Positions 3,529-53,084 of a stretch of 64,000 nucleotides of DNA are shown here, one piece after another. Numbering within the stretch: the first letter of the stretch is position 1; each line of letters begins with the position of its first letter. Source of the stretch: Escherichia phage vB_EcoM_P8; the sequence record PV390659.2. The stretch is one strand, 5' to 3'. A model generated the notes under the pieces. It saw only the letters and a list, made by a program, of their open reading frames with translations, was not told where the DNA came from and did not search any database. The position numbers and the translations under genes are program-made.

Positions 3529-3552
3529 GGACTCCTTCGGGAGTCCTTTTTT
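3529..3552 (+). terminator. rho-independent terminator after soc
   Basis: GGACTCC-TTCG-GGAGTCC followed by TTTTTT. Confidence 0.75.
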
Positions 3553-3562
3553 CATTTTACTG

Positions 3563-3592
3563 GTTTACTTTCCAAAATGAGTATGGTATAAT
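3563..3592 (+). promoter_or_regulatory. T4-type early promoter
   Basis: GTTTAC, 18-nt spacer, TATAAT. Confidence 0.55.
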
Positions 3593-3618
3593 AAAATTAT
3601 CTTATAGAGGAGAGCACT

Positions 3619-5476: not shown

Positions 5477-5659
5477 ATGGATTTATTTGAGATGTTAGAA
5501 GATAATCATTCTACGAATATCCAGAATGATTCTAGTGATTATAAGAAAGAGTACCGTATAGTATTACAGAATTATGGAATTGAAGCCCCAGATGCTCTTC
5601 TAGAAGAACTAGCTTCATACCATCTTGACCCTCCGCCCTGGGCTCCCTGGGCAAAATAA
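5477..5659 (+). CDS. hypothetical small acidic protein
   Basis: 60 aa ORF. Confidence 0.4.
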   Translation: MDLFEMLEDNHSTNIQNDSSDYKKEYRIVLQNYGIEAPDALLEELASYHLDPPPWAPWAK

Positions 5660-5670
5660 TTCAAAAAGTT

Positions 5671-5700
5671 GTTTACTTTCCTTCCTAACAATGATATGAT
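5671..5700 (+). promoter_or_regulatory. T4-type early promoter upstream of modB
   Basis: GTTTAC, 18-nt spacer, TATGAT. Confidence 0.5.
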
Positions 5701-5726
5701 AGTTTCTGAAGTATATGGAGGCTATC

Positions 5727-6949: not shown

Positions 6950-7065
6950 TGGAAGGACTTAGATTCATTATACCATGAAAGTTTTAAAGCATTTTTCATA
7001 AAGTTGTTTACAAGCTGAAGTAAAAATGTTATAGTATAAGTAGTTAACCCGTCCGTGAGAAAAAT

Positions 7066-10626: not shown

Positions 10627-10632
10627 AAAGTT

Positions 10633-10662
10633 GTTTACTTCCTCGGTTAGTTGTGGTATTAT
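10633..10662 (+). promoter_or_regulatory. T4-type early promoter
   Basis: GTTTAC, 18-nt spacer, TATTAT; leader closely resembles the one at 1219-1270. Confidence 0.55.
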
Positions 10663-10689
10663 AACATCATAGCTACTGAGGATAATAAA

Positions 10690-11735: not shown

Positions 11736-11737
11736 TA

Positions 11738-11767
11738 GTTTACAAACTCTTGGGATCAGAGTATAAT
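11738..11767 (+). promoter_or_regulatory. T4-type early promoter
   Basis: GTTTAC, 18-nt spacer, TATAAT. Confidence 0.55.
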
Positions 11768-11811
11768 GGTCCCGTGGAGTATAAAATCTTTTTAACAAGT
11801 GAGAGATAACT

Positions 11812-12309: not shown

Positions 12310-12406
12310 AGTTTAAAATTTTTTCATAAAACTATATACATCAGTAGTTGATTATGGTACTATATCAATATCAACTACTGATACAGAAAATAACTTGGAG
12401 AATAAA

Positions 12407-12676
12407 ATGGAAAACTTAATTATCATCGAACAATCTTTCAACGATTATGGTATGGCTTATGGTTATCGTGCGATAATGGAAGATTCTCGTGGATGTGTTA
12501 TCGATATTGCTGAATGTAAAGATTTACTGCAGCTTTTGAAGATTGTTCGCAAAAATTGGGATTGTGAAAACATTAAAGTTCGTGTTGTAACGGAAGAAGA
12601 AACTGTTTTTCATGATGTAAAATTTGCCAAAGGTGCTGCTACTCTTCTGAAACGCATCACTCCAATGTTCAATTAA
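12407..12676 (+). CDS. hypothetical protein
   Basis: 89 aa from ATG 12407 with GGAG SD. Confidence 0.5.
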   Translation: MENLIIIEQSFNDYGMAYGYRAIMEDSRGCVIDIAECKDLLQLLKIVRKNWDCENIKVRVVTEEETVFHDVKFAKGAATLLKRITPMFN

Positions 12677-13511: not shown

Positions 13512-13883
13512 ATGTTTAAAATCGGTAAGAAATATCGTGTTCGCGAAGGCAAAGAAAAGAAATATCTACTTTCTTCTATTTATAGGAATAGTTCTATTAA
13601 TACTGTAATATCTACAAGCGAATTTATCGTTGAAGATATGAAAGGTCATAATGTTACAATGATTAGTACAGCATCTGGAAATGATGGAAAAATTCTTCAT
13701 AGTTTTCAGAGTAATGTTCTAATTTATGATGAAGAATTTGACTTCTTCGAAGAAGTTACAGAAGATTTTGATTTTGAATGCACTATCACTATGAAATCTG
13801 GCGACCCTCTTTCTTTTACAGTTAAAGATGAAAGAAGTCGCTTGAGAATTATTAGTCTTCTTCAAGCCATTAAATTTGAGTGA
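13512..13883 (+). CDS. hypothetical protein
   Basis: 123 aa ORF. Confidence 0.55.
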   Translation: MFKIGKKYRVREGKEKKYLLSSIYRNSSINTVISTSEFIVEDMKGHNVTMISTASGNDGKILHSFQSNVLIYDEEFDFFEEVTEDFDFECTITMKSGDPLSFTVKDERSRLRIISLLQAIKFE

Positions 13884-14148
13884 AATTATGAAATATGTTA
13901 ATCGTTCTATCGCGGCATTAGTATTAGCAGTATCTTTAGTAGGATGTACTGATGCTGATAATGCAACCAAAGTTTTGTCTTCAAGTGGGTTTACTAATAT
14001 TGAAATCACTGGATACAATTGGTTTGGTTGCTCTGAAAATGATTTCCAACACACTGGATTTCGTGCTATTGGACCTACTGGGCAGAAAGTAGAAGGAACC
14101 GTGTGTTCTGGTCTATTCTTCAAGGATTCGACTATCCGTTTTAAATAA
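13876..14148 (+). CDS. putative lipoprotein
   Basis: Signal peptide plus lipobox LVGC at residues 21-24; 90 aa; hairpin terminator follows. Confidence 0.55.
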   Translation: MSEIMKYVNRSIAALVLAVSLVGCTDADNATKVLSSSGFTNIEITGYNWFGCSENDFQHTGFRAIGPTGQKVEGTVCSGLFFKDSTIRFK

Positions 14149-14170
14149 AAGGCCTTCGGGCCTTTAGCTT
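14148..14170 (+). terminator. terminator-like hairpin
   Basis: AAAGGCC-TTCG-GGCCTTT; weak U-tract. Confidence 0.4.
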
Positions 14171-14217
14171 TATGATTACCGGAGTATAATATTCCCAAAA
14201 CCAAACGAGGATAAGTG

Positions 14218-16035
14218 ATGATTAAGAATGAAATTAAAATTCTGAGCGATATTGAACATATCAAAAAGCGTAGCGGCATGTACATTGGTTCTTCTGCTAA
14301 TGAAATGCATGAGCGCTTTCTGTTTGGTAAATGGGAAAGTGTTCAGTATGTACCTGGTCTTGTTAAGCTTATTGATGAAATTATCGATAACTCGGTAGAT
14401 GAAGGTATTCGTACTAAGTTTAAATTCGCAAATAAAATTAATGTTACTATCAAAAACAATCAAGTAACAGTTGAAGATAACGGTCGTGGTATTCCACAGG
14501 CGATGGTTAAAACACCTACTGGTGAAGAAATTCCTGGTCCAGTTGCTGCATGGACTATTCCAAAAGCAGGTGGTAACTTTGGTGATGATAAAGAACGCGT
14601 CACTGGCGGTATGAACGGTGTTGGTTCTAGTTTAACTAACATTTTTTCTGTGATGTTTGTCGGTGAAACTGGCGACGGTCAAAATAATATTGTGGTTCGT
14701 TGTTCAAATGGCATGGAAAATAAATCATGGGAAACTATTCCTGGAAAATGGAAAGGAACTCGCGTTACTTTCATTCCTGATTTTATGTCATTTGAAACTA
14801 ATGAGCTATCTCAAGTTTATCTTGACATTACACTAGATCGTCTCCAGACACTTGCAGTAGTTTATCCTGATATTCAATTTACCTTTAATGGTAAAAAGGT
14901 TCAGGGTAATTTTAAGAAATATGCACGCCAATATGATGAACATGCTATCGTTCAAGAACAAGAAAACTGTTCTATTGCGGTTGGTCGTTCACCCGATGGT
15001 TTTCGTCAATTAACATACGTCAATAACATTCATACTAAGAATGGTGGCCATCACATTGACTGTGTTATGGATGATATTTGTGAAGACCTTATTCCACAAA
15101 TCAAACGTAAATTTAAAATTGACGTAACTAAAGCACGTGTTAAAGAATGTTTGACTATCGTTATGTTTGTTCGTGATATGAAAAACATGCGATTTGATTC
15201 TCAAACTAAAGAGCGTCTGACTTCTCCATTTGGTGAAATCCGTAGTCATATTCAGCTTGATGCTAAAAAGATTTCACGTGCTATTTTAAATAATGAAGCA
15301 ATTTTAATGCCAATCATTGAAGCTGCCTTGGCTCGTAAATTGGCGGCAGAAAAAGCAGCAGAAACTAAAGCAGCTAAAAAGGCTTCTAAAGCTAAGGTTC
15401 ATAAACATATTAAAGCGAATCTTTGTGGTAAAGATGCTGACACTACTCTTTTCTTGACTGAGGGTGATTCCGCTATCGGATATCTTATTGATGTTCGTGA
15501 TAAAGAACTTCATGGTGGTTATCCATTACGTGGTAAAGTTCTCAACAGTTGGGGTATGTCATATGCTGATATGCTTAAAAACAAAGAACTGTTTGATATT
15601 TGCGCAATCACTGGATTAGTTCTTGGTGAAAAAGCCGAAAACTTGAATTATCATAATATTGCTATTATGACTGACGCTGACCACGATGGTCTAGGAAGCA
15701 TTTATCCTTCTCTGCTCGGATTTTTCAGTAATTGGCCAGAACTGTTTGAACAAGGAAGAATTCGCTTTGTCAAAACTCCTGTAATCATCGCTCAGGTCGG
15801 TAAAAAACAAGAATGGTTTTATACAGTCGCTGAATATGAGAGTGCTAAAGATGCTCTACCTAAACATAGCATCCGTTATATTAAGGGACTTGGCTCTTTG
15901 GAAAAATCTGAATATCGTGAGATGATTCAAAACCCAGTATATGATGTTGTTAAACTTCCTGAGAACTGGAAAGAGCTTTTTGAAATGCTTATGGGAGATA
16001 ATGCTGATCTTCGTAAAGAATGGATGAGCCAGTAG
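14218..16035 (+). CDS. 39: DNA topoisomerase II large subunit, uninterrupted 39+60 fusion type
   Basis: 605 aa; GHKL ATPase N-terminus MIKNEIKILSDIEH..., Toprim C-terminus ...IAIMTDADHDG...; single ORF. Confidence 0.9.
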   Translation: MIKNEIKILSDIEHIKKRSGMYIGSSANEMHERFLFGKWESVQYVPGLVKLIDEIIDNSVDEGIRTKFKFANKINVTIKNNQVTVEDNGRGIPQAMVKTPTGEEIPGPVAAWTIPKAGGNFGDDKERVTGGMNGVGSSLTNIFSVMFVGETGDGQNNIVVRCSNGMENKSWETIPGKWKGTRVTFIPDFMSFETNELSQVYLDITLDRLQTLAVVYPDIQFTFNGKKVQGNFKKYARQYDEHAIVQEQENCSIAVGRSPDGFRQLTYVNNIHTKNGGHHIDCVMDDICEDLIPQIKRKFKIDVTKARVKECLTIVMFVRDMKNMRFDSQTKERLTSPFGEIRSHIQLDAKKISRAILNNEAILMPIIEAALARKLAAEKAAETKAAKKASKAKVHKHIKANLCGKDADTTLFLTEGDSAIGYLIDVRDKELHGGYPLRGKVLNSWGMSYADMLKNKELFDICAITGLVLGEKAENLNYHNIAIMTDADHDGLGSIYPSLLGFFSNWPELFEQGRIRFVKTPVIIAQVGKKQEWFYTVAEYESAKDALPKHSIRYIKGLGSLEKSEYREMIQNPVYDVVKLPENWKELFEMLMGDNADLRKEWMSQ

Positions 16036-16064
16036 TTTACTTTACCACAAGGATGTGGTATAAT
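16035..16064 (+). promoter_or_regulatory. T4-type early promoter upstream of rIIA.1/rIIA
   Basis: GTTTAC, 18-nt spacer, TATAAT. Confidence 0.55.
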
Positions 16065-16089
16065 TAATTGGGCAAATGAGGACATTGAA

Positions 16090-18492: not shown

Positions 18493-19431
18493 ATGTACAA
18501 TATTAAATGCCTGACCAAAAACGAACAAGCTGAAATTGTTAAATTGTATTCAAGTGGTAATTATACCCAACAGGAATTGGCTGATTGGCAAGGTGTATCG
18601 GTTGACACAATCCGTCGTGTTTTGAAAAATGCTGAAGAAGCTGAGCGCTCCAAAGTTACCATTAGCGGTGACATTACAGTTACAGTTAAGAGCGATGCAG
18701 CTATTGCTCCAGTTGCTAAATCTGACATTATTTGGAATGCATCTAAAAAATTCATTTCAATTACTGTTGACGGTGTAACTTATAACGCAACTCCTAATAC
18801 TCATTCAAACTTCCAAGAAATTCTTAATCTGCTTGTTGCAGATAAATTGGAAGAAGCAGCGCAAAAAATTAACGTTCGTCGCGCTGTTGAAAAATATATT
18901 TCCGGTGATGTTCGAATTGAAGGTGGAAGCTTGTTCTATCAAAATATTGAATTGCGATCTGGTTTAGTTGATCGTATTCTTGATTCGATGGAAAAAGGCG
19001 AAAACTTTGAATTTTATTTTCCGTTCTTGGAAAATCTGCTGGAAAACCCAAGCCAAAAAGCAGTATCTCGACTCTTTGATTTTTTGGTAGCAAACGATAT
19101 TGAAATTACAGAAGACGGTTACTTCTATGCTTGGAAAGTAGTTCGCAGTAATTACTTTGACTGTCATTCAAATACTTTTGATAACAGTCCTGGCGAAGTA
19201 GTTAAAATGCCACGTACTCGTGTGAATGACGATGATACACAAACTTGTTCTCGTGGTCTGCATGTGTGTTCTAAATCTTATATTCGTCACTTTGGCAGTT
19301 CAACCAGCCGAGTTGTAAAAGTTAAAGTACATCCTCGCGATGTAGTATCAATTCCGATTGATTACAACGATGCTAAAATGCGTACCTGCCAATACGAAGT
19401 AGTTGAAGACGTTACTGAACAATTTAAATAA
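18493..19431 (+). CDS. rIIB: rIIB protein
   Basis: 312 aa, same length and position as T4 rIIB. Confidence 0.9.
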   Translation: MYNIKCLTKNEQAEIVKLYSSGNYTQQELADWQGVSVDTIRRVLKNAEEAERSKVTISGDITVTVKSDAAIAPVAKSDIIWNASKKFISITVDGVTYNATPNTHSNFQEILNLLVADKLEEAAQKINVRRAVEKYISGDVRIEGGSLFYQNIELRSGLVDRILDSMEKGENFEFYFPFLENLLENPSQKAVSRLFDFLVANDIEITEDGYFYAWKVVRSNYFDCHSNTFDNSPGEVVKMPRTRVNDDDTQTCSRGLHVCSKSYIRHFGSSTSRVVKVKVHPRDVVSIPIDYNDAKMRTCQYEVVEDVTEQFK

Positions 19432-19459
19432 GGGCTTCGGCCCTTAACTAAGGAAAATT

Positions 19460-19654
19460 ATGTTAGGTTATCAAGCACGAGTAAAAGAAGAATACGATCA
19501 ATTAATGCTCAAAATTAATGCACTGAGCAAATTTTTAGAAAGCACAAAGTTTCTAACGATTAATGAAGTTGAACAAGAATTACTGCTTTCACAGTTCATC
19601 TCAATGAAATCTTACGCAGATTGTTTAGAAAAAAGAATTGCACAATTCAAATAA
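19460..19654 (+). CDS. hypothetical protein
   Basis: 64 aa between two hairpins. Confidence 0.45.
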   Translation: MLGYQARVKEEYDQLMLKINALSKFLESTKFLTINEVEQELLLSQFISMKSYADCLEKRIAQFK

Positions 19655-19657
19655 AAT

Positions 19658-19680
19658 AAGGTGCTTCGGCCCTTTTGTTT
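19658..19680 (+). terminator. terminator-like hairpin
   Basis: GGTGC-TTCG-GCCC followed by TTTTGTTTT. Confidence 0.4.
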
Positions 19681-20512: not shown

Positions 20513-20528
20513 AAATTTTCACAAAACG

Positions 20529-20558
20529 GTTTACATACCACAAGGACTGTGGTACTAT
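20529..20558 (+). promoter_or_regulatory. T4-type early promoter (repeated cassette)
   Basis: GTTTAC, 18-nt spacer, TACTAT; cassette CACAAAACGGTTTACA...GGTACTATACAACTATC recurs at 24171 and 40845. Confidence 0.55.
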
Positions 20559-20585
20559 ACAACTATCAGCTACGGAGGAGTAAAA

Positions 20586-20849
20586 ATGAAATTTAAATTT
20601 TATTACGCTAAACATAAAATAACTGATGAGTTTGTGTCAGTTGAATATTCTAGCGATGATGAAGGTATGATTTATACTCGCTTAGGGTTATCGCGCTGGG
20701 AGTCTGATACGCCTTATTTTTCAACTCCCGAAGAAATTACACGTTTAGTTAATGGTCATATGAATGACCACTGGGATGTAATTCTTTCAGATAGTCTTAA
20801 AGCAGCTATTAATAGTAATGAAATGAAAATCGCTGAGATTGAACTATGA
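20586..20849 (+). CDS. hypothetical protein
   Basis: 87 aa after early promoter. Confidence 0.5.
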   Translation: MKFKFYYAKHKITDEFVSVEYSSDDEGMIYTRLGLSRWESDTPYFSTPEEITRLVNGHMNDHWDVILSDSLKAAINSNEMKIAEIEL

Positions 20850-21027: not shown

Positions 21028-21034
21028 AAAAGTT

Positions 21035-21064
21035 GTTTACAAGACTGTTCCTCTGTGGTATTAT
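21035..21064 (+). promoter_or_regulatory. T4-type early promoter within stem-loop
   Basis: GTTTAC, 18-nt spacer, TATTAT; flanked by CTGTTCCTC/GAGGAACAG 9-bp inverted repeat. Confidence 0.55.
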
Positions 21065-21092
21065 TACCCTATCAACTACGGAGGAACAGAAA

Positions 21093-24115: not shown

Positions 24116-24120
24116 TTTTA

Positions 24121-24150
24121 GGGAGAGCCTCGGCTCTCCCTTTTTATTTT
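24121..24150 (+). terminator. rho-independent terminator after gene 52 block
   Basis: GGGAGAGCC/GGCTCTCCC stem followed by TTTTTATTTT. Confidence 0.7.
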
Positions 24151-24170
24151 AAAATTTTTTTCACAAAACG

Positions 24171-24200
24171 GTTTACAACCAAAGCATACTGTGGTACTAT
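24171..24200 (+). promoter_or_regulatory. T4-type early promoter upstream of motA
   Basis: GTTTAC, 18-nt spacer, TACTAT. Confidence 0.55.
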
Positions 24201-24241
24201 ACAACTATCAACTACTGATACAGAATTACGGAGATTAGAAA

Positions 24242-24877
24242 ATGTCTAAAGTAACTTACATCATCAAAGCTTCTAACGATGTTCTGAATGAAAAAACTGC
24301 TGCGATTTTAATTACCATTGCTAAGAAAGATTTCATTACAGCTGCAGAAGTTCGTGAGGTGCATCCAGATTTAGGTAATGCAGTAGTTAATAGTAATATT
24401 GGGGTATTGATTAAAAAAGGCCTGGTAGAGAAATCGGGTGATGGATTAATCATTACTGGTGAAGCTCAGGATATTATTTCAAATGCAGCAACTTTATACG
24501 CACAGGAAAATGCTCCGGAACTGCTGAAAAAACGAGCAACTCGTAAAGCTCGCGAGATTACTTCTGATATGGAAGAAGATAAAGACTTCATGCTAAAACT
24601 TTTAGATGAAAATGGATTTGTTCTTAAAAAGGTTGAAACTTATCGTAGTAACTATCTTGCTATTTTAGAAAAACGCACCCACGGAATTCGTAATTTTGAA
24701 ATTAATAACAATGGAAATATGCGAATTTTTGGATACAAAATGATGGAACATCATATTCAGAAATTTACTGACATTGGTATGTCATGTAAAATCGCTAAAA
24801 ACGGTAATGTGTATCTTGACATTAAACGCTCAGCAGAAAACATTGAAGCTGTAATCGCCGTAGCATCTGAACTGTGA
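24242..24877 (+). CDS. motA: middle transcription activator MotA
   Basis: 211 aa MSKVTYIIKASNDVLNEKTAAILITIAKKDFITAAE... matches T4 MotA. Confidence 0.9.
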   Translation: MSKVTYIIKASNDVLNEKTAAILITIAKKDFITAAEVREVHPDLGNAVVNSNIGVLIKKGLVEKSGDGLIITGEAQDIISNAATLYAQENAPELLKKRATRKAREITSDMEEDKDFMLKLLDENGFVLKKVETYRSNYLAILEKRTHGIRNFEINNNGNMRIFGYKMMEHHIQKFTDIGMSCKIAKNGNVYLDIKRSAENIEAVIAVASEL

Positions 24878-25217: not shown

Positions 25218-25675
25218 ATCCATTTATTAATCGTTTAAAAATGCTGAATGTTCCTTTATATCGTGAAACTCCAGAAAGTCTTGTTCAAAAATTTAAAGCG
25301 CATGGTTATAAATGCACAGAAGAAGATATTCTGAAAGAAGTTCCTGAAATCTGTTGGCAGACTGCGTACTGGGATGAAAACCAAAAGTATCAACGACGAA
25401 TTGTCTGTGCAGCTAATCGTTTTAAATTAAAAGATGGACGAACTCTTGTTATTCCAGGTGCTCGTCATTATTCTAAAGATATGGCAGAAGTTTTAGATGT
25501 AGTTAAACCTCAATTAGTTACTCAGCAAGTTTGTGATGATGACCAAGGGTTTATTGACCAATATAGTAATTATTGGACACGTGAAGAAGCAATGATTATT
25601 GCAACTTATGCTGGACAAGTGCGTATTGAACGTGGTGGTAGTGAAAAAGAACTTTACTCTGAGGACCTTTACTAA
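25214..25675 (+). CDS. hypothetical protein
   Basis: 153 aa, ATGA-coupled. Confidence 0.55.
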
Positions 25676-26535: not shown

Positions 26536-26684
26536 GTCATAATCTTGAAATGGTAATCGAGCATAATGTAGCTCAGGAACGTAAGTCGTTCAAGGAATTC
26601 GTAGAAAAAATTTTTGAAGAAAATAACACAGACCAGTTTACAAATCAAGTGTCTGATGATATTATAATAAAGTCAACTAATTGA
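26532..26684 (+). CDS. hypothetical small protein
   Basis: 50 codons, ATGA-coupled. Confidence 0.35.
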   Translation: MSHNLEMVIEHNVAQERKSFKEFVEKIFEENNTDQFTNQVSDDIIIKSTN

Positions 26685-26696
26685 GTGGTATAGTTA

Positions 26697-26969: not shown

Positions 26970-27626
26970 TTATTTAGCCCTTCCTAATATTCTGGCCGCC
27001 TGAGAACATATTGATTCAAGGCGGTCATTACTTATATGATCATTTCTATACCAGTACATGGTTATTGTTCCAGCATAGATATTATCCAAGTTAAAATATG
27101 GACAACTGTACATGTAATTTATTTCGGGAGTAGGCTTTTTAGTTGGTAAAAAAGCAAATTTTGAGTTGGAATAATAATGACGTCCATTTAAATGAACTGC
27201 ATATTCATCCATAGTTTTATCAACAGGATATCCTCCAAGTGATTTTTCGCTTATTGTTGAAGGTAATTTTCCTTCATATGCTATAATATCAACAAAATAG
27301 TTTAAGTTTTTAGGGCGGAAAGAATACACCGCACTAAAGTCTGCCTCAGATGATATGTGAACTATCTGGAGTTGTTCCAGGGCGACAGATTCAAAGCGTG
27401 CATTTCTTTCCTTTTCAATAATTTCACTGTATGTTTCATACTTTGATTGCTTATAGTACTCAAAGAAACTATCTCCCCTATACCAAACAATCGCCATTAT
27501 AAACAAAAGAATTACGACAGCTACCCGGGAAGCAAGAACTTTCCCGGTAGCGTTATCTTTGAACAAGCGATCTAGAACACCCAACAGAATATCAGAGGGC
27601 GAAAATGATATTCTAGGTGCTGCCAT
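26970..27626 (-). CDS. t: holin T
   Basis: 218 aa; MAAPRISFSPSDILLGVLDRLFKDNATGKVLASRVAVVILLF... matches T4 holin. Confidence 0.9.
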   Translation of the reverse strand: MAAPRISFSPSDILLGVLDRLFKDNATGKVLASRVAVVILLFIMAIVWYRGDSFFEYYKQSKYETYSEIIEKERNARFESVALEQLQIVHISSEADFSAVYSFRPKNLNYFVDIIAYEGKLPSTISEKSLGGYPVDKTMDEYAVHLNGRHYYSNSKFAFLPTKKPTPEINYMYSCPYFNLDNIYAGTITMYWYRNDHISNDRLESICSQAARILGRAK

Positions 27627-27656
27627 AGACCCTCCTTTTAAGGATATTTATTCAAA

Positions 27657-28433
27657 TTATACTCTTGGACCATATATTGCTCCAACGTTTTGCCACGTTG
27701 GCGTAGACCCTATGACGGCATAACCAGCAGCTCCGCCATCGTATTCATATCCTTGACCACGAATATTACATCTACCTCCTGCGGAGCCAACTTCACCACC
27801 AGACCCGCCGCTATAGATACCGTTCACAGACCCTGCGCCAGGCGCAGAAATAGTACCGGCAGTTGCTCCTGATTGCATATCAATAGATCCGCCCGGCGCG
27901 CCAAACGGACGACCGCCACCACCGCCAAATGTCAATCTCATTTGTGAAAAAGGAGAATAATATCCGCCACCGCCGCCGCCACCGCCGCCAGCAATAGCTC
28001 CGCCATTATTAATTCTTAGTCTCCCACCAATATCATTTTGAATACAATGACCTCCAGCTGAGCCAGGACTATTGCTACCGCCATTCCCGCCACGGCCATA
28101 CATCGTTACACCGTGTATATTCAGTTGAACATATTCATTTGGTGTATCTCCGTACATGAAGAATAAAGGAACATCTTTAGAATATGATACTAAATCTCCG
28201 GTGATATTAAACACTATAGGTGCACTACCTGCCTCAAAACATCTATCTCGGAACCATTGACCATTGAAGTTATGGTCTGCTCCAAGCGTGTGAATTATTT
28301 CAACAGATCGACCTATCATATTACTCATCCAAAACGGAATGCCCATTCTTAATCGTTGGGCCGCGCCACCCATCCAATTTTGTCCTGTATTAACTACTGC
28401 AGACGATCCTACCCACGGTCCTGTTACTGCCAT
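27657..28433 (-). CDS. 38: long tail fiber tip adhesin gp38, T2-type with glycine-rich motifs
   Basis: About 258 aa from ATG 28433; conserved N-terminus; GGGGGGGGG and GGSGG runs separating variable segments. Confidence 0.85.
27780..28100 (-). repeat. glycine-rich (GGN)n coding repeats inside gene 38
   Basis: Runs of GCC/ACC/GCG triplets on plus strand encoding poly-Gly motifs that separate variable segments. Confidence 0.7.
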
Positions 28434-28444
28434 ATAAACCCCCA

Positions 28445-28460
28445 AGGGGCCGAAGCCCCT
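28445..28460 (-). terminator. intergenic hairpin between genes 37 and 38
   Basis: AGGGGC-CGAA-GCCCCT; no clean U-tract on minus strand. Confidence 0.3.
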
Positions 28461-28464
28461 CTTA

Positions 28465-31400
28465 TTATTTTAACAATGATTTAACTAATGCTTTAAGTTC
28501 TTCGATTTCTGATTTAAGTTCTGCAATTTCTGCAGTATGCTCATTGATTGCAGCTGTATTTAAACCAATTACACCGTTATAGTTCAAACGAAGTAAAGCT
28601 TCACCATCAGGGTCACCTTCAACTAATTCAGGTAAAATAGCTTGAACTTCTTGAGCTATCAAACCGGCGTTAGGTTCCCATTTCTGATTTCCTTCTTCAT
28701 CTAGGCCTCGCTTCTGCATATAAGTGTAACCGTTAATTTTAGAAAGCTTCTCAGAAGCATTTTCAAATTTAACAAGGTCTTTTTTAACACGAATATCAGA
28801 ACGGACATAAACATCGCGGACAAATGTGGAATAGGCATCGCTTTGTTGGACTAAATGACCAAAAGAAATAATAGCTCTTCCTTGTTCAGTCCACAAAGCA
28901 CCAGTGGTATCCCAAAGACCTTCATGGAGATGGTAAGCGGACGACCATGAAGCAATATGCATTCCATTTGCAACCATGTTAATACGACCGTCACCGCCAT
29001 GAACTAACCCAGTGTCATTATCACCAATAACAACACATGCGCCTGTCCATGCAGGGTCACCTCCACCAGCTGATATTCTTACTCCAGCTTTAACCATGTC
29101 AGGAACGTACATGTTTCCATTATGGTGGAATTCGAAGATAGCTTGCGGATCGCTAGCATTTTCCTGGTTACCAACACGGATAATAGCCTGAGCCCATTGG
29201 TTAGTGATACGGCGCATACCGAAATCAACACCAGATACGTATCCTTCATTCGTAATAACAGATTTTCCTTTAATAATAGGATAATAGCAGTCATTGCCGA
29301 CGTAGCCAAAATCTACAAATATCGGCGCTTCTTGTCGCCATTGGTTTGCCCAATCGCCAGCTTGGTGCGCAGTCCACTGTGTACCGTTTATATGAAGGCG
29401 GTCTCTATTAAAATTAAATGTTCCTTGACCTTGAGGAGAAAGCGATATTTCGCCGTTATTTGTTATGTATACACCGCCTTGTGTAATGTAACTGTAAAAA
29501 CCTAGACCATTATCGCCGCCGCCTTTGCCTATATACCAGTTACCTGTACCACCTACATCACTACGGATGTGCGATGAAGCACCCACGCCTGCAGTTAAAA
29601 CAAGAGCATCATTGCCTGCCGATAAAGTCAATTTACCGGTCATCGTGTCGCCTTCTTTCGAAACACGAGTCGCAATAGCATCGCGAATATTTGTAGTATC
29701 ACCGGCAGAAGTAAACGGTTTCCAAATATCAGACCAGATATTACCATTTCGAGCAATAGTAGCTTCACCACCACCGACCTGAACGTTATCCGGGAAGTTA
29801 ACAGTACCGTCTTGATTAAAACGAGACGTATGGCCTTGTGATCCATCTTCTTTGATATGGTGTAAAACAAATGTACCCGAATTAATTTCAGTACCTAAAG
29901 ACCAAACCGCTTTACTGTTTAAAAACTTCTGTTTAACAATAGGATAATATTTGTTTATAGCATCATCATCATCAATTTCCTGGAAAATAGGAGCTGCTTG
30001 AACATACTGAATATCATAACCACCAGCGCCTGCACCGTGACCAGTAAATTTAATATAGCCGTTTGCTGCGAACGTATTGTAACTTGATTGTAAATCTGGA
30101 ATAGTAACTTTACCAGTATCTAAAGCCATACTAAACGGGCGAAGTGGACCGATATCGCCATGTTTACCTTCACCGTAAGCAGTTGGAATAATATGAAGAC
30201 TGCCTTCTGAACGTCTAAAAATGGCTCCATAATCTGCATTCCAAATGCGAAGCGCATTCACTGCTCCAGATGAAATTTCGCCTGTTGTGTGAACTCCTCT
30301 ATTTCCAGCAGTAACACCGGATGATTCAAATGAACCATTGACGTTCATTTCTACTTCACCGGTAGTAAGTCTTTGAATATAACTCATCCAGCTAGTTGCG
30401 TCAGAAATTTCCATGACATTTTTACGATTACCTACACTAGGATTAGTAAACGTATTACCCCATACAGAAATTGTCATATTATCAACTGAACTGCTACCAG
30501 TTGTGTTACCTCTAAACATCAGCGTAGAAGCATTATTACGACCATCAATATTAACAGAACCACCAATAACGTCAATATTACCGGGAGTAACTAACAAACC
30601 GCCGTGAGTATTAATGTTTGTAGTACCTTTACCACGGAAATAGTGATGATAATTACCACCTTGATAATAACCTAAAAGAGTCTGACCGTCGCCATACGCG
30701 TTATTATCATGATAAGTAACAACAGTGGCTAATGCATAGTTTTCTGTCGGTGGCGTTGTCATAAGAATCCCATCCGGAGAATAACCCATAACCATTTTTC
30801 TAAGGCTTTGTGTTTCCGCAGGACCGTAAATGAAAGTTCTTGTTCCGTTGTTTACTGTATGAAAATATCCGTCCTGATGCCATTTAAATCCGGTATCATT
30901 ATCACCAAGAGCAATTGAAGCAGTCCCTAATTCAGAATATCCTTTAGAGCCGCCCGGAAGACCTATAGAAATAGAATGGCCTGCTTTCAATCCACCGGAC
31001 CAGGTAAACGACCAAAGATAGGCATCTAACCCGTCACCGGCGTACCAGGTTATCCCGTCGTTATCTTTAACTTCATGGAATATACCAGATCCTACGGCAT
31101 TTCGCATAACACGGAGGTGGTTAATAGCCGTTTCGCTTTCTGCCAACGGAGTGTTATTTGCTAATGAATAGATATCATAATCGCCTGTCTTCTTCCCATT
31201 TGTAATAACTTTATCGGTCAGAATTTGTGGAGACGAAATAGATTTCCATGCTGATACTTCAGGTGAAGTAAATAGGCCACTGCCTGAAAATGCATAGGTG
31301 CTTTCATCACCAGCGGCGTAGTCTTGAACGCGGATATTAACTACTTGCGTAGTTAATCCATCATTAGCCGGGGCATAAATGATTCCACGTTCGCGGCTAT

Positions 31401-31779
31401 TGCCATCGAAAAAACGAACATGCGATGTACCTGAACTTTTTGTAATAAGTTCTCCACCCTCAGTCATAATCTGCCCGGCGGCAATAATATCGCGAGTTAC
31501 TCGAGCAATACCAGTTAAATTGAAATCACCGGTTTGAGTGAAGGTACCATTTAAAGTATAATCACCAGTTTGATTATAGTTTCCTATATGAATAACATTC
31601 CCGTCAATGCTACCGCCTTTAGCAAAACCAAGATCAATGATATTTCCTTGGTCATCTTTAGTAAAAAGTACGCGGTCTTTTAAGTTTATAGCCAATTCAC
31701 CTTCGGCTAATACTGAAGCGGCAGGACGTGCTCCTGCAGTTTTGCTTCTTTTAAATTGTATTTGTTTTAAAGTAGCCAT
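28465..31779 (-). CDS. 37: long tail fiber distal subunit gp37 with C-terminal intramolecular-chaperone-like domain
   Basis: 1104 aa; N-terminus [23 protein letters not shown]...; C-terminus has S-D-x-R-x-K and GLIAQEVQ plus coiled coil. Confidence 0.9.
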
Positions 31780-31787
31780 AAGTCCTC

Positions 31788-32444
31788 TTAATAATAGCCG
31801 AAATCTTGAACAGAATCCTTAATAACAATTTGATCAAATCGTGGAACATGTGAGGGTTGAGATGCAGGATTCTGTGAAAAAAGGTTTGGCGCAGTTAAAT
31901 TTCCTGTCATAGTATCTCCAGAGCGTAATACCCTAGAGTTTGCGTTTGCTGTAACAATATTTATTGCTCCATCAACATAATCTTTCCGTGTAAGGTCATA
32001 ATTATTTACTGGAGATAATGAAGCTGCGCGTATTTGTGATGCTTCAATTACACCCTTTGAGCTAATATCTCCATTTCGCGTGTTAATTACTACAGTTCTA
32101 CCTGCTGTTCCTTGTGATGATTTAAAACCAATACCATACCACGAAACAATATCCATATTTGTAGTATCATACGTGGCATTATCACCAGGACCAGCAAAAA
32201 TACCATTGTCACCTGACCCTGCACCAGGAACAGTCATTCCTTTATTAAAAATTACTTTATTTAAATACGTACCACCATTAGCTTTAGAAACGAAATCGTT
32301 ATCAGTAGCTTGTGGTTTATTATATTCTGAATATATTTTAAATGATTTATAGAGTACATCGTCACCGGCTGGATTCAATGGAAAATTTCCTTGATGCCAA
32401 ATGACAGAGCCTCCAGTTGTTGAACCTACTTTTAAATCAGCCAT
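31788..32444 (-). CDS. 36: long tail fiber distal connector gp36
   Basis: 218 aa; position and size; late promoter upstream. Confidence 0.85.
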   Translation of the reverse strand: MADLKVGSTTGGSVIWHQGNFPLNPAGDDVLYKSFKIYSEYNKPQATDNDFVSKANGGTYLNKVIFNKGMTVPGAGSGDNGIFAGPGDNATYDTTNMDIVSWYGIGFKSSQGTAGRTVVINTRNGDISSKGVIEASQIRAASLSPVNNYDLTRKDYVDGAINIVTANANSRVLRSGDTMTGNLTAPNLFSQNPASQPSHVPRFDQIVIKDSVQDFGYY

Positions 32445-32467
32445 TGTATGCCCCTTTATTTTAATAG

Positions 32468-32475
32468 TATTTATA
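32468..32475 (-). promoter_or_regulatory. late promoter (TATAAATA) for gene 36
   Basis: TATAAATA on minus strand between terminator and gene 36 start. Confidence 0.6.
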
Positions 32476-32501
32476 AAGAAAAAGGGAACCCGAAGGCTCC
32501 C
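32476..32501 (-). terminator. rho-independent terminator between genes 35 and 36
   Basis: On minus strand GGGAGCC-TTCG-GGTTCCC (one G-U pair) followed by UUUUUCUUU. Confidence 0.55.
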
Positions 32502-32506
32502 TCAAT

Positions 32507-33622
32507 TTAAACTTCTCTAAATTCTTGCCCAAACACTTTACCAGTTTTAGACGATGCTTGCGTAGGAAGTACCATTATATCCGGAGGTGAAGCAGATTCA
32601 CAGACATAATTAACTCGAATACCATTGACGCCAAATTCAGCAGGTTTTGAAATTCCGCCATTTCTTGATACTTCAGAAAAGCTTAAATTTCTCATGCCGC
32701 CTTGACCAGCTTGAGCAGTTCTTTGTGCATATATTGTAAATCCTACTGCGTTTTCTGGAATAACTACATAATCTTCCTTTAATTCCCATGACCCAGCTTG
32801 TCCAGTAAACTCAGCATGTGTTGAAGAAATATATCCATTCGATTCATCATAAAAACGGATAGATATATTTGTAGTTCCAAGCGCAAGTAAATCGGCATCA
32901 GCATATAACTGTGCTTTAAGATAAAGAACATCGCCAGGAATTAAATTATAATCAGATAATTTACTTATCGCGGATGAAGTTGGTAAACGTGCAATTTCGT
33001 TATTAGTTCCACCAACCGCTGACATAAATTGCTCAACGCTTTCATATGTTCTTTTAGGAAATCCTGTAGCTCCAACGTCTTCTAAACTATCAAATACAAC
33101 ATCTAAAATAGTTTGATAATCATCTGTGCTTTTTCTATTGCTTAATTTAACATGTTCTAATGCAATAGCTCTTTTAGAAGAAGTGTAAAAAGCAGCATAT
33201 GATACGTCAAATCTTGACAATATAGAATCAGATGGAAAAGCAGACGTTCCTGTGGCTCTTAGCCAAGATACTACCTCAGGAGGAAAATTAACCTTTCCAC
33301 TAGTTAATATAGCAACAAGTCTATTATTCGTCAAAGAGTTCATGAAACCAACAAAAGCAGCTGATGTAGTATCATTTGAAGTCGAAAAAGCATATGACTT
33401 ACTATCAACTAATGCTCCTGTAGAAGGGTCAAAAACTCTTAAATGAAGACCTGTATTAAATGTTTGGCTTCCGATAGGATTATCCTGAAATTTGACATAT
33501 GGTCCTGCTGTAGAAAGCGGGCAAGAACCCGCTATGCTTATTTTATATCTTACTGAATTGCTTTCCGATAAAAATGGCGTTTGGACATATCCTTGTCCAA
33601 ACTCTGCCATAAATTTTTCCAT
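32507..33622 (-). CDS. 35: long tail fiber hinge gp35
   Basis: 371 aa; position and size. Confidence 0.85.
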   Translation of the reverse strand: MEKFMAEFGQGYVQTPFLSESNSVRYKISIAGSCPLSTAGPYVKFQDNPIGSQTFNTGLHLRVFDPSTGALVDSKSYAFSTSNDTTSAAFVGFMNSLTNNRLVAILTSGKVNFPPEVVSWLRATGTSAFPSDSILSRFDVSYAAFYTSSKRAIALEHVKLSNRKSTDDYQTILDVVFDSLEDVGATGFPKRTYESVEQFMSAVGGTNNEIARLPTSSAISKLSDYNLIPGDVLYLKAQLYADADLLALGTTNISIRFYDESNGYISSTHAEFTGQAGSWELKEDYVVIPENAVGFTIYAQRTAQAGQGGMRNLSFSEVSRNGGISKPAEFGVNGIRVNYVCESASPPDIMVLPTQASSKTGKVFGQEFREV

Positions 33623-33630
33623 AATACCTC

Positions 33631-37500: not shown

Positions 37501-37533
37501 TCTCCCGGCTCCTATTGTGTTTTCAATAATAAG

Positions 37534-37541
37534 TATTTATA
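37534..37541 (-). promoter_or_regulatory. late promoter (TATAAATA) for gene 34
   Basis: TATAAATA on minus strand about 35 nt upstream of gene 34 start; divergent from rnh early promoter. Confidence 0.65.
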
Positions 37542-37544
37542 CTT

Positions 37545-37574
37545 GTTTACTTTAAGATTCGGATGGTATATAAT
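37545..37574 (+). promoter_or_regulatory. T4-type early promoter upstream of rnh
   Basis: GTTTAC, 18-nt spacer, TATAAT. Confidence 0.55.
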
Positions 37575-53082: not shown

Positions 53083-53084
53083 TA

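Follow-up and report, generated by a model that had tools for sequence, protein, structure and literature searches.

Early-promoter cassettes repeated in a T4-type phage: previously described PeSL elements with traces of exchange, and promoter hairpins that persist across genera

Introduction

A short intergenic sequence built around a GTTTAC motif recurs in the window, i.e. the whole 64,000-nucleotide stretch of Escherichia phage vB_EcoM_P8 DNA (PV390659.2) that was analysed here. What are these repeated cassettes, and do they mark the places at which related phages differ in gene content? A first-pass annotation described near-identical early-promoter cassettes at about 20514, 24150 and 40820, regarded them as promoters of the PeSL kind with the -10 often inside a stem-loop, and proposed that they are recombination points which flank exactly the variable ORF blocks. 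In sequence the window equals vB_EcoM_BMB16 (100% identity), a member of Tequatrovirus, the genus of T4, and the flagged cassettes are an already described kind of element (PeSL) as well as T4 early promoters. As both the promoters and the PeSL shuffling model have been described in the same genus, this part of the work is a rediscovery, that is, a confirmation and not a discovery. What is new is that the hairpins at two promoters of the window, those of alc and 30.7, are kept across five to six genera of Tevenvirinae despite having different stems.

The cassettes as members of an early-promoter family

The repetition is due to two blocks. The sequence TTTCACAAAACKGTTTACA has exact copies at 20517, 24159 and 40833 (0.09 expected by chance), and GGTACTATACAACTATC has exact copies at 20551, 24193 and 40867; if up to 3 mismatches are allowed, the chance expectation for the latter is 0.16 and a fourth copy, with 3 mismatches, is found at 12356. 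An independent repeat search recovered the same families (D1, D3, D9). The conserved blocks comprise 19 nt around the -35 and 18-19 nt over the TGn, the -10 and the start-site region, while the 14-nt core of the spacer matches at just 3-6 of 14 positions. Because this spacer between the blocks is not conserved, the pairwise identity of the three cassettes over 65 nt is only 43-50 of 65 positions (66-77%; the closest pair, cassettes 2 and 3, is given as 78%), so "near-identical" is true of the two blocks but not of the cassettes as wholes. Each cassette fills an intergenic gap, has a AAAATTTTTTT stretch 5' of the -35 and contains TTTACA-N17-TACTAT, the promoter pattern of PeSLs:

20513-20585, + strand: cassette 1, filling the gap from denB to an 87-aa ORF; A/T-rich upstream part, -35 TTTACA at 20530-20535, TGn and -10 TACTAT at 20553-20558, conserved ACAACTATC start-site block, SD at 20573-20579, ATG at 20586
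24116-24241, + strand: cassette 2, upstream of motA, terminator-plus-promoter (PeSL) layout; intrinsic terminator at 24120-24141 followed by an A/T-rich part, -35 at 24172-24177, -10 TACTAT at 24195-24200, ATG at 24242
40774-40917, + strand: cassette 3, between gene 32 and frd.3, terminator-plus-promoter layout; gene 32 terminator at 40796-40814, -35 at 40846-40851, -10 TACTAT at 40869-40874, ATG at 40918

The three are one sub-family (CACAAAACKGTTTACA ... TGGTACTATACAACTATC) among 19 predicted early promoters of the window. A generic sigma-70 scan was non-discriminating (78 sites versus 75 expected) and was therefore replaced by a GTTTAC-anchored scan (GTTTAC-N17/18-TAnnnT), which gave 21 matches on the + strand and 3 on the - strand; the 19 promoters are 18 accepted matches plus a copy with a degenerate -35 at 12334. 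All of them lie in intergenic gaps and are oriented with the early genes. They are confined to the early regions, with 0 copies in the late tail-fibre block (26970-37500). The promoters have a UP element, a -35, a TGn, a -10 and an extra conserved start-site region, as T4 early promoters (Pe) do, and the 3' end of the units is formed by the SD and start codon of the downstream gene. An Rfam search of the whole window matched no family. The other 16 promoters are the following:

1189-1273, + strand: promoter 1219 (G at 1219), with CTCAGC/GCTGAG around the -10, extending to the SD
3521-3618, + strand: promoter 3563 (G at 3563), behind a terminator at 3527-3548, PeSL layout
5641-5726, + strand: modB promoter (G at 5671), spacer TTTCCTTCC; in the MFE hairpin the -10 region ATGATATGATAGT is paired with the SD and start codon (z = -2.1)
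6976-7065, + strand: promoter upstream of srd (G at 7006), without hairpin
10627-10689, + strand: promoter 10633, upstream of motB.2, with a spacer hairpin in which AGCTACTGAGGA (including the SD) is paired with spacer TCCTCGGTTAGT (-21.1 kcal/mol, z = -5.5)
11736-11811, + strand: promoter upstream of motB, hairpin around the -10 (z = -3.6)
12310-12406, + strand: promoter 12334, fourth family member; degenerate -35 ATATAC, -10 TACTAT at 12358-12363, perfect 13-bp inverted repeat 12340-12352 / 12370-12382 around the -10, leader ATCAACTACTGATACAG in common with cassette 2
16005-16089, + strand: promoter upstream of rIIA.1 (G at 16035), with a spacer hairpin, CCACAAGGATGTGG, related to the spacer of cassette 1
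21028-21092, + strand: promoter 21035; -35 at 21036-21041, -10 at 21059-21064, hairpin 21045-21053 / 21081-21089 of 15 pairs including G.U (-23.2 kcal/mol, z = -4.9), with the SD GGAGGAA as 3' arm
26606-26696, + strand: promoter upstream of asiA (G at 26636), without hairpin; located within the asiA.1 ORF
37515-37603, + strand: promoter upstream of rnh (G at 37545); its T4 orthologue is Pe148.6, a promoter mapped by primer extension
41568-41621, + strand: promoter 41567, upstream of frd.1; -10 TACTAT at 41591-41596, stem AGGGTA/TACCCT at 41576-41581 / 41597-41602 around the -10 (z = -3.1)
49776-49836, + strand: promoter 49779, between rnlA and alc; hairpin 49785-49835 pairing the spacer with the alc SD (z = -3.9)
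53083-53145, + strand: promoter 53085, between cd.3 and cd.2, named Pe133295 at this site in the T4 record itself; perfect 12-bp stem 53091-53102 / 53117-53128, 14-nt loop with the -10 TATTAT at 53109-53114
56204-56313, + strand: promoter 56257 (G of GTTTAC at 56257), behind a terminator at 56207-56228; hairpin 56271-56278 / 56299-56306 pairing the spacer with the SD
56647-56714, + strand: promoter 56649, between 30.8 and 30.7; 8-bp stem GGTACAGG/CCTGTACC at 56658-56665 / 56681-56688 around the -10 (z = -4.2)

Hairpins and terminators

A Watson-Crick stem of at least 6 bp encloses the -10 in 9 of the 19 promoters as compared to 3.9 in dinucleotide shuffles, so the earlier observation that many GTTTAC promoters have the -10 in an inverted repeat is borne out, as is the perfect 12-bp stem within 53085-53128. 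Folding z-scores of -3 or lower were found in 8 of the 19, but none of these eight is a flagged cassette: there the hairpin around the -10 is absent (z = -0.5, +0.2 and -0.5), i.e. the embedding of the -10 in a stem-loop was correctly seen at other promoters and does not apply to the three cassettes themselves. Cassettes 2 and 3 each stand directly behind an intrinsic terminator. Cassette 1 has neither an upstream terminator nor a hairpin around the -10, and its spacer contains a 5-bp hairpin (CCACA/TGTGG).

An intrinsic terminator just 5' of the promoter was detected in 4 of the 19 cases (cassettes 2 and 3, promoters 3563 and 56257). These terminators are canonical, with a G+C-rich stem followed by a T run, and the one at 3527-3548 is 87% identical to one at 56200. 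A T/U run follows none of the promoter-embedded hairpins. A strong hairpin occurs in none of the four promoters with an upstream terminator versus 8 of the 15 others, numbers that are too small for significance.

The SD or AUG is paired with a segment upstream of the start site at 1219, 3563, 5671, 10633, 21035, 49779 and 56257, and no hairpin pairs the SD at 53085, 56649, 41567, 12334 and the three flagged cassettes. The predicted accessibility of the ribosome-binding site is lower in read-through RNA than in the promoter's own transcript, with a mean difference of 0.19; the contrast to the value of 0.10 in 80 control genes is modest (p = 0.023). A stronger folding of the sense as compared to the antisense strand (p = 0.009) was dropped as evidence, since the promoter set itself had been chosen on the sense strand; this asymmetry is absent from nine unselected orthologues.

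An invertible promoter switch at 53085 was considered and rejected, as the flipped form of the loop occurs in 0 of the 646 matching records among 50,697 phage records; the best match of the flipped query is BMB16 itself (92%). According to the T4 record, the 14-nt loop of Pe133295 had at one time been reported as its inverted complement.

Persistence of the hairpins across genera

At the alc promoter, pairing between spacer and SD is present in 6 of 7 genera (including that of the window) with differing stem sequences, and it is absent in JK45. An IMG/VR search with Alc gave only 6 near-identical loci, useless for covariation, therefore diverse GenBank phages were used. MAFFT did not align the alc promoters in a register that fits one consensus structure, and matched versus mismatched arms were therefore compared instead of counting structure pairs; in this comparison own and foreign arm combinations differ with a permutation p = 0.002. 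At the 30.7 promoter a hairpin around the -10 is found in 5 of 5 phages, and three unrelated stem sequences occur among them. A hairpin at this place but with a stem unrelated to that of the window is seen in Kagamiyamavirus, Gelderlandvirus and an Enterobacter phage. The 30.7 hairpin of EcS1 makes no contact with the SD. At promoter 53085 just a 7-bp core of the stem is present in T4, PEC04, UGKSEcP1 and CAM-21.

As the alc and 30.7 hairpins persist with differing stems, and as such hairpins often pair the spacer with the Shine-Dalgarno sequence, these results suggest that they silence translation on read-through transcripts. We consider it possible, if somewhat less likely than not, that the hairpins embedding the -10 are a conserved design of Tevenvirinae in which the spacer serves as a 5' arm in read-through RNA only and the SD of the next gene is hidden, or the gene is otherwise silenced. 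For its expression each small early ORF would then depend on its own promoter alone, and the promoter-plus-ORF units would be self-contained and freely exchangeable. If true, this would extend to early promoters a principle known from the late expression of e, soc, 49 and I-TevI, and it would assign a function to those PeSL stem-loops that overlap the -10. The persistence of hairpins in spite of sequence turnover, together with the frequent pairing of the SD, offers a testable function for a part of the PeSL that has hitherto been called a terminator or attenuator.

Gene-content differences and traces of exchange

Eight relatives were compared over 1-45 kb of the window and four over 45-64 kb. 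Each of the three cassettes, and likewise promoters 1219, 41567 and 53085, coincides with a junction in one relative or more. Two different deletions in relatives share the 5' edge of promoter 1219 (1199-1205) as their left junction, promoter 41567 is an indel junction in T4, YUEEL01, UGKSEcP1, HY03 and CAM-21, and behind promoter 53085 three relatives carry an inserted 518-bp ORF at the ATG (53146). The cassettes make up 3.45% of the early DNA and hold 7 of the 43 distinct breakpoints (p = 6e-4), but the enrichment disappears under an intergenic null, where 6 of 19 breakpoints fall into cassettes versus 37% expected (p = 0.76). About two thirds of the 29 indel events have a cassette at neither end. 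Many indels are ORF-precise and promoter-free, with microhomologies of 5-19 bp (13515-13883, 41878-42213, 43046-43246, 51213-51508), and in two cases adjoining cassettes 1 and 4 (T4 and PEC04) the deletion occurred at a microhomology inside an ORF and kept the reading frame. On its right side the dam module ends within a MotA-box middle promoter, and the seg and mob homing endonucleases and the introns are inserted away from cassettes. The cassettes thus mark some, not most, of the sites at which relatives differ in gene content, and the statement about an exact flanking of the variable ORF blocks holds in part only.

Direct traces of exchange between cassettes are nevertheless present. YUEEL01 and UGKSEcP1 have a 75-aa ORF and a second promoter inserted at cassette 2, bounded by the repeat CTATCAAATAAATGAACTGAAAC, and the inserted ORF sits between duplicated promoter/leader repeats. 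Salmonella phage S16 and Klebsiella phage K65PH164 carry the same ORF elsewhere in their genomes; S16 has GTTTAC-N18-TACTAT and a leader repeat of about 55 nt on both sides of it. There are four alleles downstream of cassette 1, with every switch at CTATCA. Cassette 3 of PEC04 and FL12 contains the spacer of cassette 1 (16-17 of 18 positions), and the -10 flank of promoter 21035 is either ACAACTATC or TACCCTATC, alternating among genomes. On account of these traces the proposed role as recombination points can be upheld for some cases, not as a general rule; and since the coincidence of cassettes and breakpoints stays within the intergenic share, the case for PeSL exchange should rest on junction sequences (duplicated leaders, transplanted spacers) and not on proximity. 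What counts against exchange is the length of the shared blocks: with only about 19 nt they are short substrates for homologous recombination to work on efficiently.

A proposed mechanism and its alternatives

We consider it highly probable that the cassettes are T4-type early promoters which form insulated units and are occasionally used for recombination. As strong promoters they would be read by the host sigma-70 RNA polymerase once the DNA enters the cell, during the initial minutes of infection. A unit consists of an A/T-rich UP-like stretch, a -35 (G)TTTAC(A/T), a 17-nt spacer, TGn, a -10 TAYWAT, the conserved start-site block, a short leader, the SD and the ATG, and it may be insulated from incoming upstream transcription in one of two ways. 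One would be the intrinsic terminator just 5' of the promoter (4 of 19), the other a hairpin whose 5' arm lies in the -35/-10 spacer and whose 3' arm falls into the leader or onto the SD (8-10 of 19). Because the promoter's own transcript starts inside the loop, such a hairpin could form only in RNA that was started upstream, and there it would block or attenuate expression from read-through RNA, in about seven cases presumably by pairing of the SD. As the conserved blocks are repeated in direct orientation, we infer that they may occasionally act as crossover or conversion points for the phage's own homologous recombination, whereby accessory ORFs could be gained, lost or swapped together with promoter and leader.

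There are other ways to read the same data. The cassettes could be just promoters without any special recombination role, if indels are tolerated only in gene-free DNA, of which cassettes make up over a third. The lack of an excess over the intergenic share, the many promoter-free microhomology indels and the ORF-internal deletions of T4 and PEC04 are in line with this view. On the other hand, it does not account for the ORF inserted between direct promoter/leader repeats at cassette 2, the cassette 1 spacer that moved into cassette 3, the alternating flank at 21035 and the mini-circles shown to arise from PeSLs in RB49 and phi1, so we think that it is rather unlikely. A site-specific origin, in which the cassettes would be recombinase sites or ends of mobile elements instead of promoters used by general recombination, could be prompted by the recurrence of CTATCA at switch points, but it is extremely improbable: no recombinase or transposase gene adjoins any cassette, the junctions vary in position from the UP region to the ATG, and the seg/mob homing endonucleases and the introns insert elsewhere.

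With respect to the hairpins, it was proposed, and tested for one RB49 PeSL stem-loop, that they are terminators or attenuators of upstream transcripts and not translational masks. In that experiment the stem-loop of PeSL211/210 lowered lacZ as much as rrnB T1 did (Arbiol 2010, PMC2839356), and the hairpins without SD contact (53085, 56649, 41567, 12334 and the EcS1 30.7 hairpin) as well as the non-significant tendency of strong hairpins to be missing behind terminators would agree with it. However, no U run follows any of the hairpins, and T4 middle-mode expression relies on the extension of early transcripts through such junctions (Hinton 2010, PMC2988021); we find this one rather unlikely. 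Less likely still is an action at the level of DNA, i.e. cruciforms or single-strand hairpins which present a melted -10 or a target for recombination (endonuclease VII, template switching). This would fit the stems of the nine unselected orthologues, which are nearly all Watson-Crick with both strands folding equally well, and the 12-bp stem of BMB16, which differs from the 7-bp core by changes in both arms, a signature of templated quasi-palindrome correction; targeting of the stem-loop by a protein has also been the subject of speculation (Arbiol 2010, PMC2839356). Yet the SD is the 3' arm in about seven promoters and in most alc orthologues, which is sensible only in RNA, pairing in the 21035 arm survives C-to-T changes as G.U, most loops are A/T-rich and 14-30 nt long, unfavourable for cruciform extrusion, and the clearest traces of exchange are in the three cassettes that have no hairpin.

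Comparison with known systems

PeSL systems have been described in RB49/phi1 (PMC2839356) and in PST/T4 and nt-1/KVP40 (PMC4122927). Their commonest sub-classes have stem-loops between the boxes or overlapping the -10, and mini-circles were shown experimentally for RB49 and phi1 (Arbiol 2010, PMC2839356); TTTACW-N17-TAYWAT PeSLs are known in T4/PST, including the ndd region (Comeau 2014, PMC4122927). The layouts found here match the published sub-classes, in agreement with the assignment to the PeSL kind made in the first-pass annotation, and nothing fundamental differs. The intergenic composite is the same (upstream stop codon, A/T-rich region, -35/N17/-10, stem-loop, SD, ATG), it is repeated through the early regions with the PST/T4 consensus, and stem-loops are either upstream of the promoter or overlap the -10. 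Also shared are the indels of close relatives at some units, including the ndd region, the counterpart of cassette 1, and crossovers between the -10 and the ATG. As to differences, RB49 stems are of a G-tract/C-tract type, which those of the window are not, and the association with breakpoints was tested here against an intergenic null, which it does not exceed. Spacer-SD pairing and the persistence of hairpins across genera are not discussed in the PeSL papers (PMC2839356, PMC4122927), and Arbiol 2010 (PMC2839356) nowhere mentions translation or ribosomes. Shuffling elements at the IP loci of T-even phages (Repoila et al. 1994, as cited in Arbiol 2010, PMC2839356) appear from that citation to have the same T4 early-promoter base and weak A/T-rich stem-loops, and to flank interchangeable small early genes; they are described there for the IP loci, which are outside the window.

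The similarity to T4 early promoters is equally close. Their UP/-35/TGn/-10 anatomy (Hinton 2010, PMC2988021; compilations by Wilkens and Rueger 1994 and Miller et al. 2003) recurs in the window together with the extra conserved positions, the GTTTAC-type -35 and the orientation with the early genes. Sites at motA, frd.3, denB-ndd, rnh (Pe148.6) and cd.2 (Pe133295) are orthologous, and on the basis of this orthology the promoters are predicted to be active in the present phage, with no difference expected.

The T4 genes e, soc, 49 and I-TevI have RBS-sequestering hairpins with an internal promoter (Uzan and Miller 2010, PMC3014915). As in several promoters of the window, the 5' arm of the hairpin is upstream of the start site of the internal promoter, therefore long transcripts hide the SD/AUG and the transcript of the internal promoter can be translated. 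The internal promoter in those genes is late, which gives "late only" expression, whereas here it is early, and the predicted translational effect would be expression from the "own early transcript only".

Finally, the model of Susskind and Botstein reportedly holds that conserved linker sequences play a part in modular phage evolution. The cassettes are similar to such linkers as they provide short, conserved intergenic homology for exchange at module boundaries; the difference is that the linkers would here be functional promoters and the modules are single small ORFs.

Identity and gene map

A stretch of 5 kb around 20514-20585 matches Escherichia phage vB_EcoM_BMB16 (PV102577.1; Straboviridae, Tequatrovirus; hereafter BMB16) at 100% identity, and hundreds of T4-genus phages at 93-98%. 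Relative to the record (positions 7014-71013) the window is reverse-complemented, so that its + strand is the direction of early transcription, and the gene order is as in T4:

First early block (+ strand): 61, dam, 56, soc, mrh, modB/A, srd, dda, dexA, motB, cef, 39, rIIA, rIIB, denB, ndd, ac, 52, motA.1, motA, arn, asiA
26970-37500 (opposite strand to the early genes): late genes t and 38-34
Second early block (+ strand): rnh, dsbA, 33, 59, 32, frd.3-frd, td, nrdA, nrdB, denA, rnlA, alc, pseT, cd, 31, rIII, 30.9-30, alt

The repeated cassettes

The early-promoter cassettes noticed in the first-pass annotation are real repeats, referred to here as cassette 1 (20513-20585), cassette 2 (24116-24241, upstream of motA) and cassette 3 (40774-40917, gene 32/frd.3). 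The interval 20514-20585 is exactly the gap between the end of denB (20512) and an 87-aa ORF (ATG at 20586). Block GGTACTATACAACTATC is found exactly at 20551, 24193 and 40867, and block TTTCACAAAACKGTTTACA at 20517, 24159 and 40833, where 0.16 and 0.09 occurrences, respectively, are expected by chance at up to 3 mismatches. T4 has the same blocks at the same three sites (behind denB, ahead of motA and behind gene 32), and a separate repeat search of the window recovers the cassette families as D1, D3 and D9. However, the copies are not near-identical outside the two blocks, as only 3-6 positions of the 14-nt spacer core match among cassettes 1-3, and 43-50 of 65 nt overall. The family has a fourth member at 12310-12406, whose -35 is degenerate, and the promoters at 21035 and 41567 carry the -10-proximal block as the variant TACCCTATCAACTA.

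A scan for GTTTAC followed by a TAnnnT hexamer 17-18 nt past TTTACN gave 21 sites on the + strand vs 3 on the - strand. Eighteen of the 21 lie within or at the edge of intergenic gaps, immediately 5' of a Shine-Dalgarno (SD) sequence and ATG; together with the copy at 12334 they make up the early-promoter set of 19 units. Their anatomy is that of T4 early promoters, i.e. an A/T-rich upstream stretch, -35, TGn, -10 and extra conserved start-site positions (Hinton 2010, PMC2988021). The orthologue in T4 of the unit ahead of rnh is Pe148.6, a promoter mapped by primer extension, and the T4 RefSeq record names Pe133295 at the site orthologous to the 53085 promoter. A canonical intrinsic terminator precedes four of the 19 units (3527-3548, 24120-24141, 40796-40814, 56207-56228), and terminator and promoter together form repeats in two pairs (24113/40787 at 78%, 3520/56200 at 87%). 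As a side observation, the spacer hairpin motif ACCACAAGGA(C)TGTGG is common to the rIIA.1 promoter (16042-16058) and cassette 1 (20536-20552), and occurs in cassette 3 of PEC04 (sequence L004, around 41445) and FL12.

Promoter-early stem-loops (PeSLs) were defined in RB49 and phi1. They are intergenic units that recur along the genome, in which a stop codon and an A/T-rich region are followed by a sigma-70 promoter with a stem-loop and then by the SD and ATG; of five stem-loop positions, the commonest is between the boxes or overlapping the -10. Promoter activity, attenuation by one stem-loop and mini-circles were demonstrated (Arbiol 2010, PMC2839356). The concept was extended to PST/T4, where the consensus is TTTACW-N17-TAYWAT and the stem-loops lie ahead of the promoter; an illustrated example is a locus at which other ORFs take the place of ndd.4/ndd.5 (Comeau 2014, PMC4122927), and this is the neighbourhood of cassette 1. 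The anatomy of the cassettes agrees with both descriptions. The PeSL label is therefore appropriate, and the phenomenon is already described for the genus.

Breakpoints and cassettes

Breakpoints were called from chained blastn alignments of the window with T4, PEC04, FL12, HY03, YUEEL01, UGKSEcP1, Sfk20 and CAM-21 (1-45 kb) and with T4, PEC04, UGKSEcP1 and CAM-21 (45-64 kb). After exclusion of the tail-fibre block, segF, segG, the mob-like endonucleases in genes 39 and nrdA, and the td and nrdB introns, 29 distinct events with 43 distinct breakpoints were left. The following events touch six cassette or promoter sites:

1199-1205: left end of two different deletions that remove a promoter and an ORF, with or without dam
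20571-20578, directly past cassette 1: four alleles
24192-24214, within cassette 2: additional 322 bp in YUEEL01 and UGKSEcP1
40866: right end of a 117-bp deletion in Sfk20
41556-41617, the 41567 promoter: three kinds of events
53146, ATG behind the 53085 promoter: additional 518-bp ORF in three relatives

The alleles past cassette 1 have no ORF (T4), the 87-aa ORF (window), a 68-aa ORF (Sfk20, CAM-21) or both ORFs (UGKSEcP1). The claim that the cassettes exactly flank the variable ORF blocks is only partly true: in two thirds of the events no promoter is involved, and the ends are ORF-precise with microhomology of 5-19 bp (e.g. 13515-13883, 25227-25253, 41878-42213, 43046-43246, 51213-51508). 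The right end of the dam module lies within a MotA-box middle promoter, and both the T4 "deletion" past cassette 1 and the widespread deletion past the 12334 unit are in-frame and ORF-internal, running from just behind the ATG to near the stop. Where relatives lack the accessory ORFs at 20586-20849 and 12407-12676 (comparison with T4 and PEC04), ATG-proximal microhomology is joined to the C-terminal codons, which leaves mini-ORFs of 8-19 codons and keeps the promoter, the SD and the downstream spacing.

Whether synteny breakpoints coincide with cassettes depends on the reference. The cassettes account for 3.45% of the early DNA and hold 7 of the 43 breakpoints (binomial p = 6e-4). Of the 3766 intergenic bases, however, they account for 37%, and of the 19 breakpoints in contact with such DNA they hold 6 (p = 0.76). 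As there is no excess over the intergenic share, proximity alone cannot tell a recombination hot spot from a permissive site.

Sfk20 (sequence L009) lacks window positions 40749-40865, i.e. the last gene 32 codons, the gene 32 terminator and cassette 3 up to the -10, and its gene 32 is annotated longer; this is either a real deletion ending within cassette 3 or an assembly error.

Traces of exchange

The insert in cassette 2 of YUEEL01 and UGKSEcP1 consists of a 75-aa ORF followed by a second early promoter, with CTATCAAATAAATGAACTGAAAC behind both -10 elements. The ORF is present in 168 phages; it lies in the nrdC.10/11 region of Salmonella phage S16, where GTTTAC-N18-TACTAT and a repeat of ~55 nt through leader, SD and ATG are found on both flanks, and near tRNA genes in Klebsiella phage K65PH164. 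A related leader, CAAATAAATG, accompanies it. The ORF is located at 24266-24493 in YUEEL01 (L007), 1477-1725 in S16 (L016) and 1495-1731 in K65PH164 (L017); about one quarter of Tequatroviruses have it upstream of motA, and Gelderlandvirus and Jiaodavirus have it in unrelated parts of the genome. An early promoter invariably stands on either side, so the ORF behaves like a small mobile cassette among the early genes.

The cassette 3 spacer varies by genome: PEC04 (ataccacaaggactatgg) and FL12 (atacaacaaggactatgg) have the spacer of cassette 1 there (ataccacaaggactgtgg), and PEC04 has received the upstream AAAACA variant with it. This is in effect ectopic transfer between promoters ~20 kb apart. 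As the -10 flank of the 21035 promoter, UGKSEcP1 and CAM-21 have ACAACTATC, whereas T4, YUEEL01 and BMB16 have TACCCTATC. The alleles past cassettes 1, 2 and the 41567 promoter all split right behind CTATCA(A), the same zone, between -10 and ATG, to which the crossovers of RB49 mini-circles were mapped (Arbiol 2010, PMC2839356). The recombination interpretation, essentially the published PeSL model, is therefore partly supported: junctions and spacer transfer indicate that exchange occurs at the cassettes, but for differences in gene content they are neither the main sites nor a statistically preferred class of site.

Hairpins around the -10

Stems were searched with the 5' arm ahead of the -10 and the 3' arm behind it, and the segment from -35 to ATG was folded. 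Watson-Crick stems of at least 6 bp surround the -10 in 9 of the 19 units; dinucleotide shuffles gave 3.9, with no set above 9. Eight units fold with a z-score of -3 or lower (10633, 11738, 12334, 21035, 41567, 49779, 53085, 56649). The perfect 12-bp stem at 53085 is present (53091-53102/53117-53128). The -10 is thus often inside an inverted repeat, but not in the three flagged cassettes, which on folding have no hairpin enclosing it (z = -0.5, +0.2, -0.5). Where a terminator lies upstream, strong hairpins are lacking (0 of 4 units), vs 8 of the 15 other units with one, which is only a trend.

About seven units (1219, 3563, 5671, 10633, 21035, 49779, 56257) have an anti-SD string in the spacer, such as TTCCTC, TCCTTTG or GTCC, whose pairing partner is the SD of the downstream gene. 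The predicted start site is within the loop, hence both arms are present only in RNA arriving from upstream. In read-through RNA the ribosome-binding site is predicted to be less accessible than in RNA started at the promoter itself, by a mean of 0.19, vs 0.10 in 80 other genes handled alike (Mann-Whitney p = 0.023). We infer from these predictions that the promoter-spanning hairpin may be an insulator against expression from read-through transcripts. The sense vs antisense folding test does not separate RNA from DNA action, and we favour action at the RNA level because the pairing partner is so often the SD. Translation or ribosomes are not mentioned in Arbiol 2010 (PMC2839356), and the known T4 hairpins that hide ribosome-binding sites (e, soc, 49, I-TevI) go with late promoters (Uzan and Miller 2010, PMC3014915), whereas those described here go with early ones.

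Conservation of the hairpins

Close relatives show scant hairpin variation, with changes that fall in loops or preserve G.U pairs. The perfect 12-bp stem at 53085 is found in BMB16 only; T4, PEC04, UGKSEcP1 and CAM-21 have a 7-bp core (GGTAGAG/CTCTACC), from which BMB16 departs on both arms. From its sequence, the extension from 7 to 12 bp looks like a product of templated quasi-palindrome correction. According to the T4 record (NC_000866 133300-133313; L011 14301-14314), the 14-nt loop of the 53085-type hairpin had originally been published in inverted-complement form; among 50,697 phage records searched, 646 matched and none has the loop flipped.

At the rnlA-alc junction, BMB16, STP4-a (Gelderlandvirus), UFV01 (Karamvirus), Roth34 (Klebsiella phage), IME08 (Dhakavirus) and CHI14 (Winklervirus) carry, directly behind GTTTACA, an arm of 7-14 nt that pairs with the SD region of alc (z = -2.7 to -6.9); JK45, the seventh phage sampled, is an exception without the alc hairpin. 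The arms vary in sequence, e.g. TCTCCATTTGGTT/AACCAAATGGAGA vs TCCTCATTTCGTT/AACGAAATGAGGA, and alc spacers form stronger duplexes with their own SD region than with those of other phages (mean -14.0 vs -9.2 kcal/mol, permutation p = 0.002). Likewise, a hairpin encloses the -10 at the 30.8-30.7 junction in five of five phages examined (z = -3.6 to -7.3), with three unrelated stems:

GGTACAGG/CCTGTACC: Tequatrovirus, Mosigvirus
GCTGATTGAGTGT/ACACTCAATCAGC: Kagamiyamavirus
TCCTCCGTTGTAT/ATACAACGGAGA, SD included: Gelderlandvirus, an Enterobacter phage

Retention of the hairpins at alc and 30.7 across genera despite differing stems argues that the feature is under selection, and we consider this conserved promoter-spanning hairpin the most interesting residue of the re-examination.

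Other features of the window

The segG gene, the td and nrdB introns, the gene 39 endonuclease insertion and segF are absent from the window (at 39766-39802, 43796, 47656, 15636-15699 and 3156-3236, respectively) and are carried there by T4 or other relatives. Their presence or absence explains several of the largest differences, and no such element adjoins an early-promoter cassette. The alt-like ADP-ribosyltransferase genes are two full-length tandem copies (61087-63180 and 63184-64000; repeat families D2, D5, D19; spacing 2094 bp), the second of which is reduced to the alt.-1/alt.-2 remnants in T4.

The non-coding gap between rIII and 30.9 (398 bp, 55629-56026), of which relatives lack 155-278 bp, may be a mobile non-coding element or a small-RNA gene; it has no tRNA, Rfam family or convincing ORF, and its folding z-score is only -1.0. 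A sub-segment of ~144 bp (especially 55765-55908) is 92-95% identical in DNA to Klebsiella T4-like phages whose Alc protein is only ~55% identical to that of the window. Finally, G+C-rich UUCG-tetraloop hairpins (GGGCTTCGGCCC, GGCCTTCGGGCC) form a second intergenic repeat family, without promoters, placed right behind stop codons and just ahead of the next SD (14145-14178, 19421-19458, 19650-19674, 57081-57118, 61030-61063).
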